This document shows positions 25,416-63,960 of a DNA stretch of 64,000 bases, piece by piece; position 1 is the stretch's first letter, and each line of letters begins with the position of its first letter. The translations under genes and the position numbers were made by a program. Where the stretch lies: contig JBBSVQ010000007.1 of the NCBI GenBank assembly GCA_038046725.1, positions 88,306-152,305 on the forward strand, in the 5' to 3' direction. The DNA comes from Thermoplasmatota archaeon (GTDB lineage: Archaea > Thermoplasmatota > E2 > JACPAO01 > JAHFTW01). The notes under the pieces were generated by a model. The model was not told where the DNA came from. It searched no databases and saw only the letters and a list, made by a program, of their open reading frames with translations.

Positions 25416-26402
25416 CTACCGTTTCACGGCCTTCGTGGACTTGGCCGCGACCTCGCGAACCGCTGGCGCCGGATTCCCCGCATCGGCTACGCCGCCCGGC
25501 ACCTTCTGCTTCGTCGTCAGCACCGGCTCCATCAGGTCCCCGTGCTCCTCGTACCGCGCTAGGACCTGGTCGGGACTGAAGCGAAGGTCGGCGGCGTCTT
25601 TCGCATCCGCCCCGTCCTCGACCTCTTGCCACGTCAAGGGCGCCGCCACCGTCGGCGTCGGCTGCGCACGCAGCGAGTAGACGCAGACCGTCGTTTTGTG
25701 CTCGTTGTTCTGCGACCAGTCGATGAACACCTTGCCGCCGCGCAGGTCCTTGCGCATCACGGACGTCACCTGCTTGGGGTGGTCGCGTTCCAGAACTTGT
25801 GCGAGGGCACGCGCGATGGCGCCGGTGTGCTCGTACGTGACTCCCGGCGTGTTGAACGGCACATGCATCTGCAACCCCTTGCCGCCGGAGACCTTGGGCC
25901 ACGCCTTGAGGCCGAGCGATTTGAGGTCGTCGCGCAGCCAGAGGGCGACGCGGGCGCAGTCGAGGACGTTGGCGGGCGCGCCGGGGTCGAGGTCGAAGAC
26001 CATCATCGTGGGCCGCTCCAGCTTCGGGGCCTTGTGCATGAACGTGTGCAATTCCAGGTCGGCGGCGTTGGCGAGCCACACGAGGCTCGGCAAGTCATTG
26101 CACAGCAGGTAGTTGATGGGCGCGCCGCGCGCCTCGCTCGGCACAGGGTGCGTCTTCATCCAGGCGGGCTTGTTGGCCGGCGCTTCCTTCTGGTAGAAGT
26201 ACGGCTCCTCGACGCCGTTCGGGTACCGCTTCATGCTCACGGGCCGGTCGCGCATGTGCGGCAGGAGCGCGGGCGCGATGCCGATGTAGAACTGGATGAC
26301 CTGCGCCTTGGTGAACCCCGACTTGGGGTAGAGGACCTTGTCCGGGTTCGTGATGTCGACGATGCGGCCCTCGACTTTGAGGGGGTGCTTCTCGGTCGCC
26401 AT
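25416..26402 (-). CDS. LigD polymerase (AEP primase-polymerase) domain protein, NHEJ
   Basis: ITNPDKVLYP, KRYPNGV, FYQKE, FDLDPG, KVSGGKGLQMH, VFIDWSQN, YSLRA. Confidence 0.93.
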   Translation of the reverse strand: MATEKHPLKVEGRIVDITNPDKVLYPKSGFTKAQVIQFYIGIAPALLPHMRDRPVSMKRYPNGVEEPYFYQKEAPANKPAWMKTHPVPSEARGAPINYLLCNDLPSLVWLANAADLELHTFMHKAPKLERPTMMVFDLDPGAPANVLDCARVALWLRDDLKSLGLKAWPKVSGGKGLQMHVPFNTPGVTYEHTGAIARALAQVLERDHPKQVTSVMRKDLRGGKVFIDWSQNNEHKTTVCVYSLRAQPTPTVAAPLTWQEVEDGADAKDAADLRFSPDQVLARYEEHGDLMEPVLTTKQKVPGGVADAGNPAPAVREVAAKSTKAVKR

Positions 26403-26438
26403 TCACGACCCTCGGCGGGTGCGGCGGGCGTGCGATGG

Positions 26439-26506
26439 AACCACGAATTGCACGAAGCCCACGAAACGAATCGGGGCGGTTCGTGCCTTTCGTGCAATTC
26501 GTGGTT
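26439..26506. repeat. 9-nt-periodic palindrome (CACGAA type)
   Basis: Perfect 18-bp arms AACCACGAATTGCACGAA/TTCGTGCAATTCGTGGTT; the same left arm occurs at 35655. Confidence 0.85.
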
Positions 26507-26524
26507 GGGTCTGGGCGCCGGCCA

Positions 26525-27325
26525 TCACTTGCCCTTCTTCTGCGCCTTCTTCGCCTTGGCCAGGCTGGCTTCAAGGGCGACGAGCAGGTCGGCCGTGCGG
26601 CCGGCGGGGGCGGAGGCCGTCTCGACGGTGATTTTCTTTCCCGCCGCCTTCTTCCCGATGATGTCCTGCACGCGTTCGCGGTGGTGGTCTTTGTACTTCT
26701 TGGGCTCGAACTCGGCGCTCAAGGATTCGATGAGTTGCTGGGCGAGGGCGACTTGTCGCTTGTCGGCCGGCGCGATGTCGGCTTCCAGGTCCTCCTGCAG
26801 CGACGACACCGGCACCAGTTCGTCGTGGAAGTACATCGTCTCCATCACGAGGGCCCCGTCGCGGGCTCGGATGGCCACCAAGTGCTCCTTGTCGTGCATG
26901 ACCATGCGCGCGAGCCCCACCTTGTCGGTCTCGACGAGGGCCTCGAGCAGGAGGCGGTAGGCCTTGTGGGCGTTCTTGTCGGGGACGAGGAAGTACGGCT
27001 TGTCGTAGTACATGGGGTCAATCTGCACCTGGTCCACGAAGTCCTCGATCTCCACGGTGCGCGTGCGCTTGGGGTCCGCGGCCTCCAACTCGTCGTCGGT
27101 CAAGGTGACGTACTGCCCCGGCGTGACCTCGTAGCCCTTGACGATCTCGTCGTTGGGCACCTCGTCGCCGTCCTTGGCGCAGACTTTCTTGTACTTGATG
27201 CGGGAGCCGTCCTTGGCATGCAACTGGTTGAACTTCAGGTCCTTCTCGCGGATGGCCGTCACCAGTTTGATCGGGATGTTGACCAGCCCGAAGTTGATCG
27301 ATCCGCTCCAGATTGCGCGTGCCAT
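26525..27325 (-). CDS. ku: Ku protein (NHEJ)
   Basis: MARAIWSGSINFGLVNIPIKL, IVKGYE, IDPMYYDKPYFL, FEPKKYKDHHRE, DLLVALEASL. Confidence 0.96.
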   Translation of the reverse strand: MARAIWSGSINFGLVNIPIKLVTAIREKDLKFNQLHAKDGSRIKYKKVCAKDGDEVPNDEIVKGYEVTPGQYVTLTDDELEAADPKRTRTVEIEDFVDQVQIDPMYYDKPYFLVPDKNAHKAYRLLLEALVETDKVGLARMVMHDKEHLVAIRARDGALVMETMYFHDELVPVSSLQEDLEADIAPADKRQVALAQQLIESLSAEFEPKKYKDHHRERVQDIIGKKAAGKKITVETASAPAGRTADLLVALEASLAKAKKAQKKGK

Positions 27326-27326
27326 G

Positions 27327-28328
27327 TCAGGTCCCGTCCGTTGTCCGCTTGGCCGTCTGTTCCCAGACGACGTCGCGCGCCGGCTTGTCCGTGCGCAAGC
27401 CCTTGAACGACGCCTGACGCAAATGCCCTTGCGTTGTGAGCCCGGAGAATTCAGCCTCCCCCACGAGTTCGGGGGTCACCCAGTGGACGACGCCTCCAGC
27501 CTCGTCGCCCTGGATGGAGGTGTCGAAGGGGCAGCGCTTGGCGGGCCGCCGGTCAAGGGCCGCCCGCAAGGCGACGAGGTCCTCGTCGTCGAAGCCGGTC
27601 CCGACGCGGCCGGCAAACGTCAACGACTTGGCCCCGGGCTTGTGGAAGCCCAGCAGGAGGGCCCCGAAGGTCCCACGCCGGCCGCCCGCTCCTTCGCTCC
27701 ATCCGCCGATGACGAATTCCTGGCGATCGCGGTTGCGCACCTTGACCCAGGCGGGTGACCGTTCGCCGGGTCGGTACTTGCTGTCCAGCCGTTTGGCGAC
27801 CAGGCCCTCCAAGCCAAGGCTGCGGCTCGCCTCCAGCATCACGCTGGCGTCCGGCTGCCACGGGGGAGTCGACCAGTGGTCCCCCTGCAGGGCCAGGCCC
27901 TCGAGGGCGGCGCGCCGCTGCACGTAGGGCTTGCCCGTGAGGTCGCGGCCGTCCAAGGCCAGGACGTCGAAGGCGAGGAAATCGACGGGCGTGGCGGCGC
28001 GTGCGGCGCGGATGGCTGCGGCATCGTCGAGGAGGAAGCGCTTCTGCAGCGTGCCGAAGTCCGGGTGGCCGCGCGCGTCGAGGCACACGACCTCGCCGTC
28101 CAGGATGGCGGATGTTCCGACCGCCTGCGCCAGGCCCGCAAGCTCCGGGAAGCGGTGCGTGACGTCGTTGCCGTTGCGGCTCACCAGAAGCAGGCCTGCG
28201 TCGGCGGCGACGTGCGCCAGGATGCGCATGCCGTCCCACTTGAACTCGAAGCCGTAGCCTGGGCCGCGCGGCAACTCGCCCGGCGAGGCCAGCATCGGCC
28301 GCAGATCGAGGGCAGCGTGGCCGGGCAC
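27327..28328 (-). CDS. ATP-dependent DNA ligase (LigD ligase domain), NHEJ
   Basis: PMLA, EFKWDGMR (motif I), LDGEVV, FDVL, EGLVAKRLDSKYRPGERS, GRVGTGF, LRTDK. Confidence 0.93.
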   Translation of the reverse strand: MPGHAALDLRPMLASPGELPRGPGYGFEFKWDGMRILAHVAADAGLLLVSRNGNDVTHRFPELAGLAQAVGTSAILDGEVVCLDARGHPDFGTLQKRFLLDDAAAIRAARAATPVDFLAFDVLALDGRDLTGKPYVQRRAALEGLALQGDHWSTPPWQPDASVMLEASRSLGLEGLVAKRLDSKYRPGERSPAWVKVRNRDRQEFVIGGWSEGAGGRRGTFGALLLGFHKPGAKSLTFAGRVGTGFDDEDLVALRAALDRRPAKRCPFDTSIQGDEAGGVVHWVTPELVGEAEFSGLTTQGHLRQASFKGLRTDKPARDVVWEQTAKRTTDGT

Positions 28329-33916: not shown

Positions 33917-33943
33917 CGTGGGCGCATTTCCAGGAGGGGCCAG

Positions 33944-34006
33944 CGCAGAGCGCACAGAGACCACAGAGGGTTACCATCCTCTGCGCCCCTCTGTGGGCTC
34001 TGTGCG
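33944..34006. repeat. 9-nt-periodic palindrome (CACAGAG type)
   Basis: CGCAGAG-CG-CACAGAG-AC-CACAGAG, loop GGTTACCA, then CTCTGCG..CTCTGTG..CTCTGTGCG. Confidence 0.8.
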
Positions 34007-34032
34007 AACCCCTGGGAGACTGAGGGGCTAGC

Positions 34033-35605: not shown

Positions 35606-35654
35606 CGCGCGCCGAGCGGAGCGGGGGGTCTTCAAGTCGCGGGCGGTTCCAACC

Positions 35655-35717
35655 AACCACGAATTGCACGAAACCGCACGAAAGTGTCCGTTCGTGGTCT
35701 TCGTGAAATTCGTGGTT
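35655..35717. repeat. 9-nt-periodic palindrome (CACGAA type)
   Basis: AACCACGAATTGCACGAA...TTCGTGAAATTCGTGGTT; second copy of the 26439 element. Confidence 0.85.
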
Positions 35718-35726
35718 CGTTGCCGG

Positions 35727-43892: not shown

Positions 43893-43976
43893 CATCGGCG
43901 CGTTCGGCGTCATCGGCGGATGGGTCCGTCGCTAGCCGAGGGCAATCATCCGCCGATGACGCCGATGGCGCCGAAC
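43893..43976. repeat. 9-nt-periodic palindrome (CGCCGAT type, units pointing outward)
   Basis: Perfect 19-bp arms TCGGCGTCATCGGCGGATG (43904-43922)/CATCCGCCGATGACGCCGA (43947-43965) between convergent genes. Confidence 0.8.
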
Positions 43977-44481: not shown

Positions 44482-44549
44482 GGCCGAGGCAGCCCGCACT
44501 TGGGCCTTGACCGTTTCGAACCAAACGCCATCCCCAAACGCTGACGACG

Positions 44550-44618
44550 ATCCACCGATACACACCGATGGCACCGATGTGGTAACCCATCGGTGGGCAT
44601 CGGTGCGCATCGGTGGAT
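44550..44618. repeat. 9/10-nt-periodic palindrome (CACCGAT type) after the dnaK stop
   Basis: ATCCACCGAT-ACACACCGAT-GGCACCGAT, loop TGGTAACC, then three ATCGGTG units. Confidence 0.8.
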
Positions 44619-44638
44619 AGGCTTGGGCGAAGGAAGCC

Positions 44639-54048: not shown

Positions 54049-54987
54049 ATGAAGGCGAATCTTTCCCTGTTCGTTGCCATAGGGATTGTCCTGTCCGGCT
54101 GCAGTGGCGGCGGCGAGGCACCGACGCAGTCCTTCGACGACCTCAAAGGCACGGCTTCGGCCACGACCGGTGTCCTGCGCGGCCTCGTCGTGGACGACCG
54201 CATCATGCCGGTCGTCGGGGCCATCGTCGACCTGCGGGGGGCAAGCGAGCGCCCGAACGGTACCACGGATGACCAGGGGCGCTTCGTCTTCTCCGACTTG
54301 GAGCCCGGCACGTACTTCCTCGTCGTCTCGAGCCCGCTGCACAAGAGCATCCAGTCGAGCGCTGAGGTCATGGCCGGCGAAGACGAACCCGAGATCGTGC
54401 GCGTGCAGCTCGAGCGTCTGTTCACCCAGGACCCGTTCCCCGTCCAAGTCGTGCGCGAAGGCCATTTCCAGTGCAGCCAGGAGGGCCTGTCGGTCTGGTA
54501 TTCCTCCAGCACCTGCATTGACGGCATCACGGGCCCCTACGTCCGTGAACTGTACCCGGAAAGCTCCAACCTCACGACGCAGAACCGTGAATGGCATGCC
54601 GACGTGGGCCCCGGCTGGCAGGCCATCGTCTTCGAGATGCAATGGGATCCCACCTCCGACGGGACCTCGCAGCGCATGGGCATGGTCGTGAGCACCTACA
54701 AACCCGAACGCGACGCCACGCACACCTTCGCCGAGTTCGAGGGCGAGACTCCGGTCCGCGGCCAGATTGACGTCGGCGTCGAGCACGAGACCGCAAGCGG
54801 CGTCGAGCCCACGATGATTCCGCCTGAAGGCATGACGAACATGTCCTTCTTCGTCGGCGTGCGTTCCGACGGCTTCATTCCAGGCCTGGCCCTCAATCAG
54901 CAGTTCAAGGTCTACATCACGATGTTCCACTACGGCCGCCCGCCGGCGGACTGGTCGTTCGTCGCGGGCGACCCACTACCATTCTGA
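54049..54987 (+). CDS. Lipoprotein with a carboxypeptidase-regulatory-like domain (tandem paralog)
   Basis: Lipobox LSGC; TGVLRGLVVD...TDDQGRFVFSDLEPGTY; shared C-terminal (Q)QF.V...FH...P..W.F. Confidence 0.8.
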   Translation: MKANLSLFVAIGIVLSGCSGGGEAPTQSFDDLKGTASATTGVLRGLVVDDRIMPVVGAIVDLRGASERPNGTTDDQGRFVFSDLEPGTYFLVVSSPLHKSIQSSAEVMAGEDEPEIVRVQLERLFTQDPFPVQVVREGHFQCSQEGLSVWYSSSTCIDGITGPYVRELYPESSNLTTQNREWHADVGPGWQAIVFEMQWDPTSDGTSQRMGMVVSTYKPERDATHTFAEFEGETPVRGQIDVGVEHETASGVEPTMIPPEGMTNMSFFVGVRSDGFIPGLALNQQFKVYITMFHYGRPPADWSFVAGDPLPF

Positions 54988-55110
54988 TTCGCCAGAGGAA
55001 TTCGGCAGATTCACCAGACCAAGGCCAACGTCTCTCCGGGTCCAGTCTGCCACATTCGTCAAGCCGCAGGCATCGCGGCCTGGTGAATCTGCCACGGAAT
55101 CTGGTCAATC
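54986..55110. repeat. Periodic palindrome (GCAGATTC type) between convergent stop codons
   Basis: GGCAGATTCACCAG (55004-55017)/CTGGTGAATCTGCC (55080-55093), plus outer GATTC/GAATC units. Confidence 0.7.
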
Positions 55111-59977: not shown

Positions 59978-60052
59978 GCACCCGTACTCTAGCTCGGATA
60001 AGGGGCGGCCCTCCTAAGGCCGATGTCGTGGGTTCGAATCCCACCGGGTGCG
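59978..60052 (+). tRNA. tRNA-Arg (anticodon CCT), no intron, CCA not encoded
   Basis: Acceptor stem GCACCCG/CGGGTGC; anticodon arm CGGCC-CTCCTAA-GGCCG; T arm GTGGG-TTCGAAT-CCCAC; 75 nt. Confidence 0.95.
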
Positions 60053-62016: not shown

Positions 62017-62222
62017 GCAGCAAACTGTACGAGGACTCGCTCAAGCTCACCATCAACAAGAACCTGCAGGACATCCGCATCCTGCTGCAGTGGGCGGAAG
62101 AAGCCTACGAGACGCGGGAGAAGATCCAGCACGCCGACCAGGCGTTGCATTTCCTCACCGAAGTCGTCGAGACGCTGCGCGAACTGCACAACAACCCGCG
62201 GCCGAACGTTCGCGAAGACTAG
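62013..62222 (+). CDS. Small helical hypothetical protein
   Basis: 69 aa; ATGA overlap with the upstream gene; host-like codon usage. Confidence 0.65.
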   Translation: MSSKLYEDSLKLTINKNLQDIRILLQWAEEAYETREKIQHADQALHFLTEVVETLRELHNNPRPNVRED

Positions 62223-62695
62223 GGCGCAGATTGCGCAGAGCCCGGGTCGGGCATCCCACCCGGCCCTAGCCGTTGCGGATGCCCACCGTCCCAGGATTGC
62301 CATTTCGCAGATTGTGGAGTGTTGCCGTGGGTGAACACGTATCGGCGGTGTTCGAGCGACCCGAGTCCGAAGTTCAGCAAGAGCCCGGTGGAAAGTCCGG
62401 ATGCGCGCAAGTAGCTGACGACCTGCATGGTATCGGGCAGTGCGAAGCCGACTTTTGCTTTCAGCTCGACGAGCACTTCACCGAAGCAGACGAAGTCCGC
62501 CCGGTGATTCGTGCGAAGTCGGACCCCGTCGTAGGTGATGCCAAACGGCACTTCCCGCGCGAACGGCACCCCTTGCTTGGCGAACTCAAGAGCAAGTCCT
62601 TCCTGGTACGCGGATTCCTTGAATCCAGGTCCCAATTTTCGATGCGTCGCCATGGCACAACCGATGATGGCGTAGGTCCGCGGATCGCGCAGCAC
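62219..62695 (-). CDS. GxxExxY family protein (PD-(D/E)xK nuclease-like)
   Basis: YAIIGCAMATHRKLGPGFKESAYQ, RADFVC..EVLVELKA, QVVSYLRAS..GLLLNFG. Confidence 0.92.
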   Translation of the reverse strand: MLRDPRTYAIIGCAMATHRKLGPGFKESAYQEGLALEFAKQGVPFAREVPFGITYDGVRLRTNHRADFVCFGEVLVELKAKVGFALPDTMQVVSYLRASGLSTGLLLNFGLGSLEHRRYVFTHGNTPQSAKWQSWDGGHPQRLGPGGMPDPGSAQSAP

Positions 62696-62820
62696 GAGGA
62701 TACACCAAGCGCCGGGGGCTTCGCCTTGTGGCCCAGCAAAGCGAAATCGGACGGTCGTTGGCCTGGCCTCATCTGCGAAATGGCGAATGCCCCTGGAAGG
62801 GGGATCTGCGATGTCCGTGA
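62224..62820. mobile_element. Putative GxxExxY cassette bounded by periodic inverted repeats
   Basis: GCCATTTCGCAGAT (62299-62312)/ATCTGCGAAATGGC (62771-62784) perfect IR, plus outer CGCAGATTGCGCAGAGCCC / GGGATCTGCG; fills the gap between two convergent stop codons. Confidence 0.55.
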
Positions 62821-63960
62821 TTACTTGGCGACGGCGTCGAATTCCATCGTCGGCTGGCAGGCCAAGGCGTGCAGCACGGCGGTGGCCACGTCGACGGAGG
62901 ACTGGAAGCCGGCCACGAGGTTGTCTTGGCCGCCTGCCATCGCGGTCATGGTTTCGACCGTGTCCTGCAAGTGCCAGAACGGGTACGCGCCCATGGGCGT
63001 GTGCGCCTCTTCCGGGATCTCGCCCGTCGTGTTGGGGACGCCGAGCTCCTCGAAGTCGGAGATGAAGAAGATGGTCGGGATGGGGCCGCCCTGTTCCTCC
63101 GTGACTTCCCAGAAGCGCGCGTAGTCGCTGGAGCCGAGCAGGAGCCCGTCCTTGCGCGCCCACTGCGCGTCAGGCCAACCCATGGCGCGGCGGGCGTTGT
63201 CCGCGGCGGCGTAGGTGGCGTTCGAGTTGTCGATGACGTTGATGGGGGCCATGACGCCGGGCCAGTTCAGGCCGATCATGTCGAGGTCGACGGCGCCGCG
63301 CACGGTGATGCGGCCGTACGGCGTCGTGAAGTTGTCGCCCTCTTCGCCGCCGGTGACGAAGGCGTTGACGAAGGCCGCGGCGCCCTGCGTTCCGCGTTCC
63401 TCGCCGTCGTAGCCGACGAAGGCCATGGTGTAGTACGGCGTGACGTTGGCGAAGGCCTTGCCGAGGTGGACGGTCATCATGGTGCCGGAGCCGTCATCGT
63501 AGGCGCCCTGGCTGAGGGCGCGCAGCGGGCAGGGGTTGGGCTGGTCGACAACCGGGATGGTGCTGACGAGGCAGTCGTCGGTCGTCGTGTCGTAGTGGCC
63601 GCCAACGACGACCCACTCGTCGCGCACGAGGCCCCACTTGATGCCGATGATGTTGGCCTGCGGGATGCCGGCCGTGAAGTTCTGGCGGTAGACCTCGAGG
63701 CCGTAGGAGGCAAAGCGCTCCATGAGGGCGACGCGGGCCGACTCGTGCGTGGGCTTGTTGGCGGCGCGCTCGTTGTGTTCGGTCACGAAGGCGGCGTGGT
63801 CGGCCAGGAGTTCAACGGCGTCCACATGCGGGACGTCGGGCACGACGTAGTCGGCCGGGGCGATGAGGGTGTTGTCGTCTTGGTCGCCGGACGAGTCGTC
63901 GGCGACGCAGCCTGCCAGGGTGGCCATGGCCAGGAGGGCCAGGACCGCGAGCTTGCGCAT
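62821..63960 (-). CDS. M28-family metallopeptidase lipoprotein (paralog of 14117-15655)
   Basis: Lipobox LAGC; GGHYD, GAYDDGSG, DGEERGTQGA, DLDMIG, SSDY, FWHLQDT. Confidence 0.88.
   Translation of the reverse strand: MRKLAVLALLAMATLAGCVADDSSGDQDDNTLIAPADYVVPDVPHVDAVELLADHAAFVTEHNERAANKPTHESARVALMERFASYGLEVYRQNFTAGIPQANIIGIKWGLVRDEWVVVGGHYDTTTDDCLVSTIPVVDQPNPCPLRALSQGAYDDGSGTMMTVHLGKAFANVTPYYTMAFVGYDGEERGTQGAAAFVNAFVTGGEEGDNFTTPYGRITVRGAVDLDMIGLNWPGVMAPINVIDNSNATYAAADNARRAMGWPDAQWARKDGLLLGSSDYARFWEVTEEQGGPIPTIFFISDFEELGVPNTTGEIPEEAHTPMGAYPFWHLQDTVETMTAMAGGQDNLVAGFQSSVDVATAVLHALACQPTMEFDAVAK

Follow-up and report, generated by a model that had tools for sequence, protein, structure and literature searches.

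The 64,000-nucleotide (nt) stretch of Thermoplasmatota archaeon DNA analyzed here (contig JBBSVQ010000007.1 of assembly GCA_038046725.1, positions 88,306 to 152,305; hereafter, the window) contains a 595-bp cassette at 62225 to 62819 in which the gene for a small GxxExxY-family protein, related to PD-(D/E)xK nucleases, is enclosed by two inverted arms, each an array of short periodic units. This gene-plus-arms cassette is widespread across bacteria and archaea. The 2.07-Mb assembly (86% complete, 67% G+C) has eight paralogs of the gene and about 150 hairpins built in the same way, with unit types numbering at least ten. The reading that we favor, with moderate confidence, is a nuclease-repeat partnership like that of the repetitive extragenic palindromic (REP) doublets forming hairpins and REP-associated tyrosine transposases (REPIN/RAYT), built here on a Cas4/RecB-like nuclease.

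The cassette fills the gap between the stop codons of two convergent genes, one coding for a 74-amino-acid (aa) protein (p74) and the other for an M28 peptidase; the downstream outer units begin 2 nt past the p74 stop codon, and 1 nt separates the upstream arm from the stop codon of M28 (62821 to 62823). The stop codons of p74 and of the GxxExxY open reading frame (ORF) share a CTAG at 62219 to 62222. An initial annotation of the window had placed a cassette in this gap, with a perfect 14-bp inverted repeat and an imperfect outer repeat of CGCAGAT units around the gene; all of these features are present, and only the extent given, 62219 to 62820, needs correction to 62225 to 62819, since 62219 is the end of the open frame. 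The two halves of the 14-nt repeat, GCCATTTCGCAGAT and ATCTGCGAAATGGC, are the only exact copies of this 14-mer in the window, and the chance expectation for such a repeat is about 1e-3 per 600 nt (approximately 1.8e5 position pairs × 4^-14). The window has 15 occurrences of CGCAGAT (9.9 expected), 4 of which fall within 62225 to 62810. Both arms are split by self-complementary inserts of unrelated sequence. The 56-nt insert of the downstream arm forms local hairpins in both minimum free energy (MFE) and centroid folds, and its presence, not its sequence, is conserved in the closest relatives (loci L082, L100, L088, and L086 have the same split-arm design; L numbers denote compared loci, G numbers congeneric or related genomes, and G000 this genome). 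The closest relative, with 67% identity, is at another site in congeneric genome G011, and the downstream outer units align to (T)TCTGCGTAATCTGCG in its cassette. The two cassettes align end to end and have in common the outer double unit, the insert position, the inner unit, a CCAAY-N3-NGKMC motif, the GTG start (62695 here), and the downstream units, and the split-arm design is therefore inherited rather than a product of decay.

The same design recurs with other members of the family. All six of the full-length copies tested in this genome, which has eight PF13366 matches, have inverted arms of 9-nt-periodic units, each with its own unit type (cores CACCGAT, CACAGAG/CACGGAG, CACGAA, a CCGATT type, CACAGAA, and the CGCAGAT of this copy). 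Two matches look decayed: a fragment covering profile positions 17 to 84 inside a 566-aa open frame (C11:146210-146413) and a divergent copy that has lost the catalytic Asp, with PVSF in place of RADF (C43:7137-7454). Loci of relatives were fetched through a single protein query, one genome per species, and 43 of the 47 had enough flank to score. In this first set of bacterial and other loci, the gene is enclosed by an inverted repeat (ungapped score of at least 14) in 28 of 43, a score that the best of 20 shuffles attains in 0 of 43 and direct repeats, as a control, in 8 of 43. Adding 24 congeneric and the six own cassettes to the bacterial relatives' loci gives 71 cassettes, of which 52 are armed by the same score (28 of 41 bacterial; 24 of 30 archaeal, which are those of the genus), and four of the six misses within the genus show arms by eye that the ungapped score loses (L078, L093, L100, and L086). 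GxxExxY genes thus do not generally lack such flanks, which was one of the ways in which the initial annotation could have failed. The unit period among the 52 is 9 nt in 43, 10 nt in 6, 11 nt in 2, and 8 nt in 1. When one arm is compared with the other, agreement is seen in 629 of 632 cases for columns constant among units and in 469 of 572 (82%) for variable ones, showing that the core word is strongly constrained and that the arms are true inverted copies. The idea that the 2-nt spacers are noncomplementary and the arms mere arrays of binding sites was rejected on the match of the variable columns. CGCAGAT or CACAGAT cores are kept around proteins only 41 to 58% identical to this one and from more than ten phyla; among these closest bacterial relatives, such cores are found in G+C-rich genomes, and Bacteroidota have CAGAAT or AATCCTG cores.

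At the orthologous site the cassette is variable. All 10 loci of relatives that have p74 and M28 as a convergent pair lack it, with no GxxExxY match between the two genes, and the gene is thus not syntenically fixed, contrary to a second possibility that the initial annotation had allowed for. The closest empty site, in G011 (p74 91% and M28 69% identical), is a spacer of approximately 80 nt without units, and units are lacking in 8 of the 10 loci. Of the other two, G003 has a gene-less palindrome of another type, and in G004 a CAGAT-like hairpin has TCATCTGCGAAAT in common with the upstream inner unit of this cassette. Ordinary regulation or chance, with the units serving as operators of a host regulator or as a bidirectional terminator and the gene merely lying between them, would agree with a cassette that fills a convergent intergenic gap and with arm inserts that form G+C-rich local hairpins; it was already disfavored and is very improbable given these empty spacers and the recurrence of the design in both domains whatever the neighboring genes.

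The ORF product is a GxxExxY protein, matching PF13366 (PDDEXK_3; E value of 1.5e-30; 106.4 bits, cutoff 22) and TIGR04256 (E value of 7.5e-34; 116.6 bits, cutoff 35; profile positions 3 to 116 of 116 on residues 7 to 120 of 158), with the G-x-x-E-x-x-Y motif present as GFKESAY. In an alignment of 55 sequences, E27, Y30, K79, Q91, N108, and F109 are invariant and D67 and E77 nearly so; because the numbering is that of this protein, all eight residues are present in this copy. The catalytic D…ExK triad of the PD-(D/E)xK fold is conserved. The predicted structure (predicted local distance difference test score [pLDDT] of 94.8) has an alpha/beta nuclease fold with Cas4 SSO0001 (4ic1) as its best match (E value of 1.2e-4; template modeling [TM] score of 0.49 to 0.58; 13 to 19% identity), followed by RecB-family nuclease domains, lambda exonuclease, MGME1, and Hjc. 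The likeness to Cas4 and RecB nucleases thus extends to the D…ExK core, but the GxxExxY protein is about half the size of Cas4, the TM score is only in the range given, and no cas genes were seen beside the gene in the flanks inspected. A sequence search of the PDB with the protein gave nothing at an E value of 1 or less, no PHROGs family was matched, and none of the PADLOC models matched at an E value of 0.01 or less, so there is no match to a known or candidate defense protein. The family is large, with 10,602 clusters at 50% identity (E value of 0.001 or less), and it is entered as function-unknown where the survey PMC3424549 lists it. GxxExxY genes are present in 8 of 72,556 plasmid records, mostly very large replicons, and none was found in phage records, so there is no sign of a plasmid or phage vehicle. 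Some members of approximately 250 to 295 aa match the query in two stretches (P0016, P0018, P0028, P0043, and others), indicating that the family includes tandem-duplicated or fused proteins.

Hairpins of the same build but without a gene are abundant in this genome. A census identified 378 hairpins with arms of at least 16 nt and at least 80% complementarity, after runs of 100 N (C16:13653-13752, C16:57300-57399, and C36:10237-10336) were filtered out, and 149 of these have a lag-9 self-identity of at least 0.6, compared with 5 to 42 at other lags (6 to 8 and 10 to 12). They fall into CACCGA (35), CGCCGA (19), CACAGAG (16), CACGAA (16), CGCGAA (15), CACTGA (7), CGGGAA (5), CACGGA (4), and minor types, with 25 unclassed, some of which are probably hits to coding sequence. 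Abundant types match the arms of paralogs C1 (CACCGA), C32 (CACAGAG), and C36 (CACGAA). The orientation is cassette-like in 106 and tail-to-tail in 25, the latter seemingly neighboring elements that abut, and hairpins of one type may have identical arms yet differing loops. The window itself has six such palindromes, all of them between genes (Table 1). The initial annotation had proposed that this protein serves the empty palindromes of the window, a role that the unit types would fit at most for the one at 54985 to 55110, which is CAGAT-like; the other five are of other types (CACGAA twice, CACAGAG, CGCCGA, and CACCGA), three of which match other paralogs. The palindrome at 54985 to 55110 and a second gene-less element at C16:57952-58097 each keep a cassette-internal motif, and the former looks, from its sequence, like a cassette of this copy's type that has lost its gene. 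A search of the 86%-complete genome for RAYT (PF01797) gave no match, so that there is none to which the palindromes could be ascribed.

The gene family and the palindromes also occur together across genomes. PF13366 is present in 12 of 12 genomes of the genus (1 to 7 matches each), in 0 of 6 from other genera of the family, in 0 of 6 from the order, and in 1 of 6 from the class. The three-unit pattern CRCNGANNNCRCNGANNNCRCNGA has 149 matches in this genome, 4 to 400 in the 12 genomes of the genus, and 0 to 5 elsewhere, with 0 to 4 for the reversed pattern and 0 in the triplet-shuffled own genome. Genomes free of the family thus do not carry the palindromes equally often, a third outcome that the initial annotation had named as fatal. 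Since these genomes are nearly devoid of the palindromes, most GxxExxY genes are armed, and the gene is not fixed at its site, the gene-plus-arms unit and its link to the gene-less palindromes are both supported. The dominant type differs among species, being CACGGAT in G008, CGCGGAT in G009, and CGCAGAG in G003.

Comparison of orthologous sites shows that gene-less palindromes come and go and also change type. The spacer between Ku and the LigD polymerase-domain gene is approximately 120 nt here, with a CACGAA palindrome, versus 3 to 8 nt in G011, G008, and G003. The site 3′ of an aminotransferase gene (33917 to 34032; L106, L107, and L109) has a CACAGAG palindrome here, CGCAGAG in G003, CGCCGAT in G011, and none in G007, which could mean that insertions recur at a hot spot or that palindromes are replaced in concert. 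At one further site, judged equivalent by reading its flanks, the arms are CACCGAT in G000 (C1:143789-144124) and G012 (L098) and CGCCGAT in G006 (L077), in every unit of both arms. Such a switch fits replacement by conversion, and thus the notion that the palindromes spread by other means and that the nuclease gene is their homing-endonuclease-like parasite: a gene-less palindrome of like type would be cut and the gene copied into its loop by repair, with the arms as homology. The genes always occupy the loop position between arms built like gene-less hairpins, there are many orphan types without a gene, and the same intergenic site may hold orphans of different types or a cassette, all as homing would have it. 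We nonetheless judge homing distinctly unlikely, as arms of approximately 20 to 30 bp are short for recombinational repair, no genome has the two near-identical gene copies that recent homing would yield, and the gene-less elements with an internal CCAAC motif resemble deletion products of cassettes rather than naive targets.

The ORF reads through into its own repeat, as was evident in the initial annotation, the conceptual translation of the downstream arm being …PQSAKWQ…SAQSAP before the stop codon. These C-terminal 38 aa (62219 to 62335) lie beyond the family profile, the nuclease domain itself being complete, and make the open frame longer than the approximately 120 to 130 aa expected of the family; the ORFs of lower-G+C relatives end 5 to 12 codons past the profile. 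Many ORFs enter the downstream arm, and their predicted products have Ser-Ala/Val at its TCNGYG cores, a frame found in 20 of the 30 nine-nt cassettes with TCNGYG cores. All 14 of the nine-nt cassettes with a stop codon beyond the arm are in this frame (for example, this copy, L089, L088, and L001), and where the stop codon precedes the arm, the cassettes divide 3/4/4 among the three frames.

Entry into the arm in one frame means that ribosomes could melt a stem formed by the arms, and this uniformity favors an RNA-level device, in which the arms would pair in the transcript into a long gene-enclosing stem, like those of 23S rRNA intervening sequences or rRNA processing, that controls mRNA processing, stability, or translation; the gene-less hairpins would then be stabilizers or terminators that the host retains in 3′ untranslated regions, with a cellular role of its own for the nuclease. 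We hold this to be improbable, though it does have further points in its favor. In RNA folds of 62215 to 62825 (gene strand), the 14-mers pair within an extended stem in both MFE and centroid structures, and the variable arm columns retain their complementarity. The hairpins are also mostly downstream of genes: a crude ORF census places 99 of the 149 in spacers (46 are inside called ORFs and 4 at contig ends), and these spacers are tandem in 65 cases, convergent in 29, and divergent in 5, compared with 624, 194, and 177 genome-wide. The fold has a z-score of only -2.08, however, and 1 of 20 shuffles is equally good; arm mismatches have no clear sense-strand wobble bias (of 106, 25 are G-T plus T-G and 18 are A-C plus C-A), and the mismatch types give no decisive signal for RNA versus DNA. 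A mere stem would not need the core sequence itself to be kept across phyla, as it is, and the polymorphic insertions and changes of type at orthologous sites are more readily explained by mobile DNA than by a signal that the host retains. Apart from one tRNA gene in the window, Rfam gave no family match, and the window has no rRNA match.

This copy is 30 to 53% identical to its own paralogs and, in a tree of 70 proteins, pairs with the G011 copy with a Shimodaira-Hasegawa-like approximate likelihood ratio test (SH-aLRT) value of 98. The pair groups with three bacterial CAGAT-type proteins (weak support of 80), outside a genus clade of 20 proteins (support of 90) that holds most of the other genus paralogs. 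Unit labels change 28 times on the tree versus 40.2 times in shuffles (0 of 200 as low), a figure inflated by kinship alone. We read this copy as intact, stably resident, and belonging to a CAGAT subtype whose closest kin are bacterial, and the gene boxed by word arrays has apparently passed between domains as one unit. Among genus cassettes, 16 of 30 have the CCAAY-N3-NGKMC motif (often GGCCAAC…TGGAC or …GTCCGA) 72 to 115 nt ahead of the domain start, and 0 of 40 bacterial cassettes have it; whether it falls within the upstream arm or outside it varies among cassettes. The motif occurs 175 times in the genome, 18 of them near arrays, and 9% of the genome lies near arrays. Orphan loops contain CAACC/GGTTG in 10 of 90 cases versus approximately 4.4 expected, and the wider [CG]CAAC is at expectation (10 versus 9.9). 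The CCAAC motif was rejected as a general feature of orphans, the full motif not being linked to arrays; it is likely a promoter or regulator site, perhaps one specific to the lineage.

In the partnership that we favor, the gene for a Cas4/RecB-like PD-(D/E)xK nuclease of approximately 120 aa is boxed by two inverted arrays of a 7-nt core, usually 9 nt apart, and the protein would recognize core units, both in its own arms and in gene-less hairpins built of like units, and cut at them, after which host repair or replication would copy or move the element. The cassette would be the master, and the approximately 150 gene-less palindromes its nonautonomous derivatives. The unit structure, its generality, core conservation, presence/absence and type turnover, and genus-level co-occurrence are direct observations; from them we infer binding, cleavage, and movement in trans, with a hairpin, cruciform, duplex, or RNA as the substrate. 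It is conceivable, and we propose it only tentatively, that GxxExxY cassettes make up a novel class of selfish or mobile elements in bacteria and archaea, in which the sole protein, a minimal Cas4/RecB-like nuclease, reads arrays of a 7-nt word and spreads itself and hundreds of gene-less hairpins by cut-and-repair without a transposase or recombinase. On this tentative view, the 9-nt period would reflect one protein bound per unit along a hairpin or cruciform, protein specificity and unit sequence would coevolve, as the concerted CACCGAT-to-CGCCGAT switch suggests, and the family would be a source of many natural word-specific nucleases.

Several observations weigh against the partnership. 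Among 124 typed hairpins, 55 have no cognate gene in the assembly (CGCCGA 19, CGCGAA 15, CACTGA 7, CGGGAA 5, and others), and this copy's own type has only about two gene-less CAGAT-like relatives in the genome. The dominant orphan type of G008 and of G009 is not that of the arms around the copies found there, and within the genus the number of genes has no obvious relation to the number of pattern matches (1 gene with 266 matches in G001; 4 genes with 25 matches in G004). The co-occurrence is all within one genus and may therefore be a single evolutionary event. No gene cassette has a recent copy, to judge by the divergence of the own paralogs and of the G011 copy, and we know of no strand-transfer chemistry for a 120-aa PD-(D/E)xK nuclease. 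No target duplication was found at the cassette ends, the spacer of the closest empty site (G011) not being alignable. No excised or empty form was found in contigs from runs of other studies (X2, X3, X4, and X6), which leave parts of the cassette uncovered in some cases and, since rare variants are lost in contigs, are uninformative on excision. In three other studies, contigs span both junctions with 0 differences and no joints, and none of the public runs with the cassette is catalogued as RNA. The autonomy that the initial annotation tentatively ascribed to the cassette thus finds no support in a near-identical second copy, a target duplication, or an excised form.

The analogy that the initial annotation drew to RAYT/REP pairs is apt. 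In the sections of PMC3116915 that describe REPIN/RAYT systems, a single-copy, divergent enzyme gene is flanked by palindromes dispersed gene-less in the genome; as here, a genome has several repeat flavors, each beside its own gene, the repeats are extragenic, and the enzyme gene is mostly inherited vertically with old lateral transfers. The two differ in that the enzyme is a PF13366 PD-(D/E)xK nuclease rather than an HUH Y1 transposase (PF01797), the arms are arrays of 2 to 4 short units with a fixed 9-nt period rather than a single REP hairpin (by the same sections), and many orphan types here have no gene. Like insertion sequences and miniature inverted-repeat transposable elements (MITEs), the cassette has terminal inverted repeats that enclose one gene, with the gene ends running into the repeats, and as with MITEs, gene-less derivatives keep the ends and some internal sequence and show insertion polymorphism between species; unlike insertion sequences, it has no transposase of a known family (the only ORF being PF13366), no target duplication, and no multiple near-identical copies. 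The intervening sequences of 23S rRNA contain a small PF05635 ORF, of a paralog-rich family with patchy distribution, inside inverted repeats that can form a long stem. The cassette is similar in having inverted repeats that could form such a stem around a small ORF, likewise of a patchily distributed family rich in paralogs, but it lies between the p74 and M28 genes, not in rRNA, and its ORF family differs; PF05635 was not found in this genome. Literature searches on the GxxExxY family names, on intervening-sequence proteins with inverted repeats, and on archaeal REP-type repeats yielded no description of these cassettes. If the family is the enzyme partner of periodic-palindrome repeats, this would account for intergenic repeats of a kind common in archaea and many bacterial phyla, ideas on enzyme-repeat coevolution drawn from REPIN/RAYT would gain an independent second example, and attention would be drawn to small nucleases reading short words in structured DNA. 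With its many paralogs, unit types, and hairpins, and with congeneric genomes that differ in types and counts, the genome is a good test bed.

Table 1. Cassette parts, neighboring genes, and periodic palindromes of the window
Feature	Coordinates	Strand	Remarks
Periodic palindrome, CACGAA type, gene-less	26439-26506		Between Ku and LigD polymerase-domain gene
Periodic palindrome, CACAGAG type, gene-less	33951-34006		Downstream of aminotransferase gene
Periodic palindrome, CACGAA type, gene-less	35650-35722		From window inverted-repeat scan
Periodic palindrome, CGCCGA type	43895-43974		Same as C7:132200-132279; tail-to-tail, abutted ends
Periodic palindrome, CACCGA type, gene-less	44539-44629		Just downstream of dnaK
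CAGAT-like element, gene-less	54985-55110		Three CAGA-type units, GGCCAAC, ~45 nt, inverted units
p74 gene, 74 aa	61998-62222	+	No family match; converges on cassette; position beside M28 gene conserved in relatives
GxxExxY ORF, 158 aa	62219-62695	-	Likely GTG start at 62695; family match 62336-62677
Downstream arm, outer units	62225-62242		CGCAGAT-TG-CGCAGAG-CC; two units, 9-nt period (62225-62240, CGCAGAT-TG-CGCAGAG)
Downstream-arm insert, 56 nt	62243-62298		Splits arm; self-complementary, e.g., GGGCATCC (62249-62256) with GGATGCCC (62277-62284)
Downstream arm, inner unit	62299-62312		GCCATTTCGCAGAT, left half of 14-bp inverted repeat; within ORF tail
Cis motif CCAAY-N3-NGKMC	62747-62761	-	CCAACGACCGTCCGA; between upstream arm and gene; conserved in L082
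Upstream arm, inner unit	62771-62784		ATCTGCGAAATGGC, right half of perfect 14-bp inverted repeat
Upstream-arm insert, 19 nt	62785-62803		Splits arm; small hairpin CCCC-TGGAA-GGGG at 62790-62802
Upstream arm, outer units	62804-62819		Gene strand CACGGAC-AT-CGCAGAT (62819-62804); outermost unit degenerate
M28 peptidase gene	62821-63960	-	PF04389, E value of 5.5e-16; one of tandem paralog set

Some other features of the window are of note. An archaeal nonhomologous end-joining (NHEJ) gene set is located at 25416 to 28328, with Ku (26525 to 27325; TIGR02772, E value of 5e-92) between the LigD polymerase-domain and ligase-domain genes. In relatives searched with the Ku query, Ku was found in G011, G003, and G008 and not in G007 or G005, giving no clear tie between NHEJ genes and hairpin load. 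The window also codes for an archaeal-type DnaG primase (NF003108, E value of 6e-148) and has a tRNA gene at 59978 to 60052 (RF00005, 57 bits), which is its sole Rfam match. M28 peptidase genes in the genus form tandem sets of two or three paralogs, here comprising 62821 to 63960 and C7:152355-153377 of G000.

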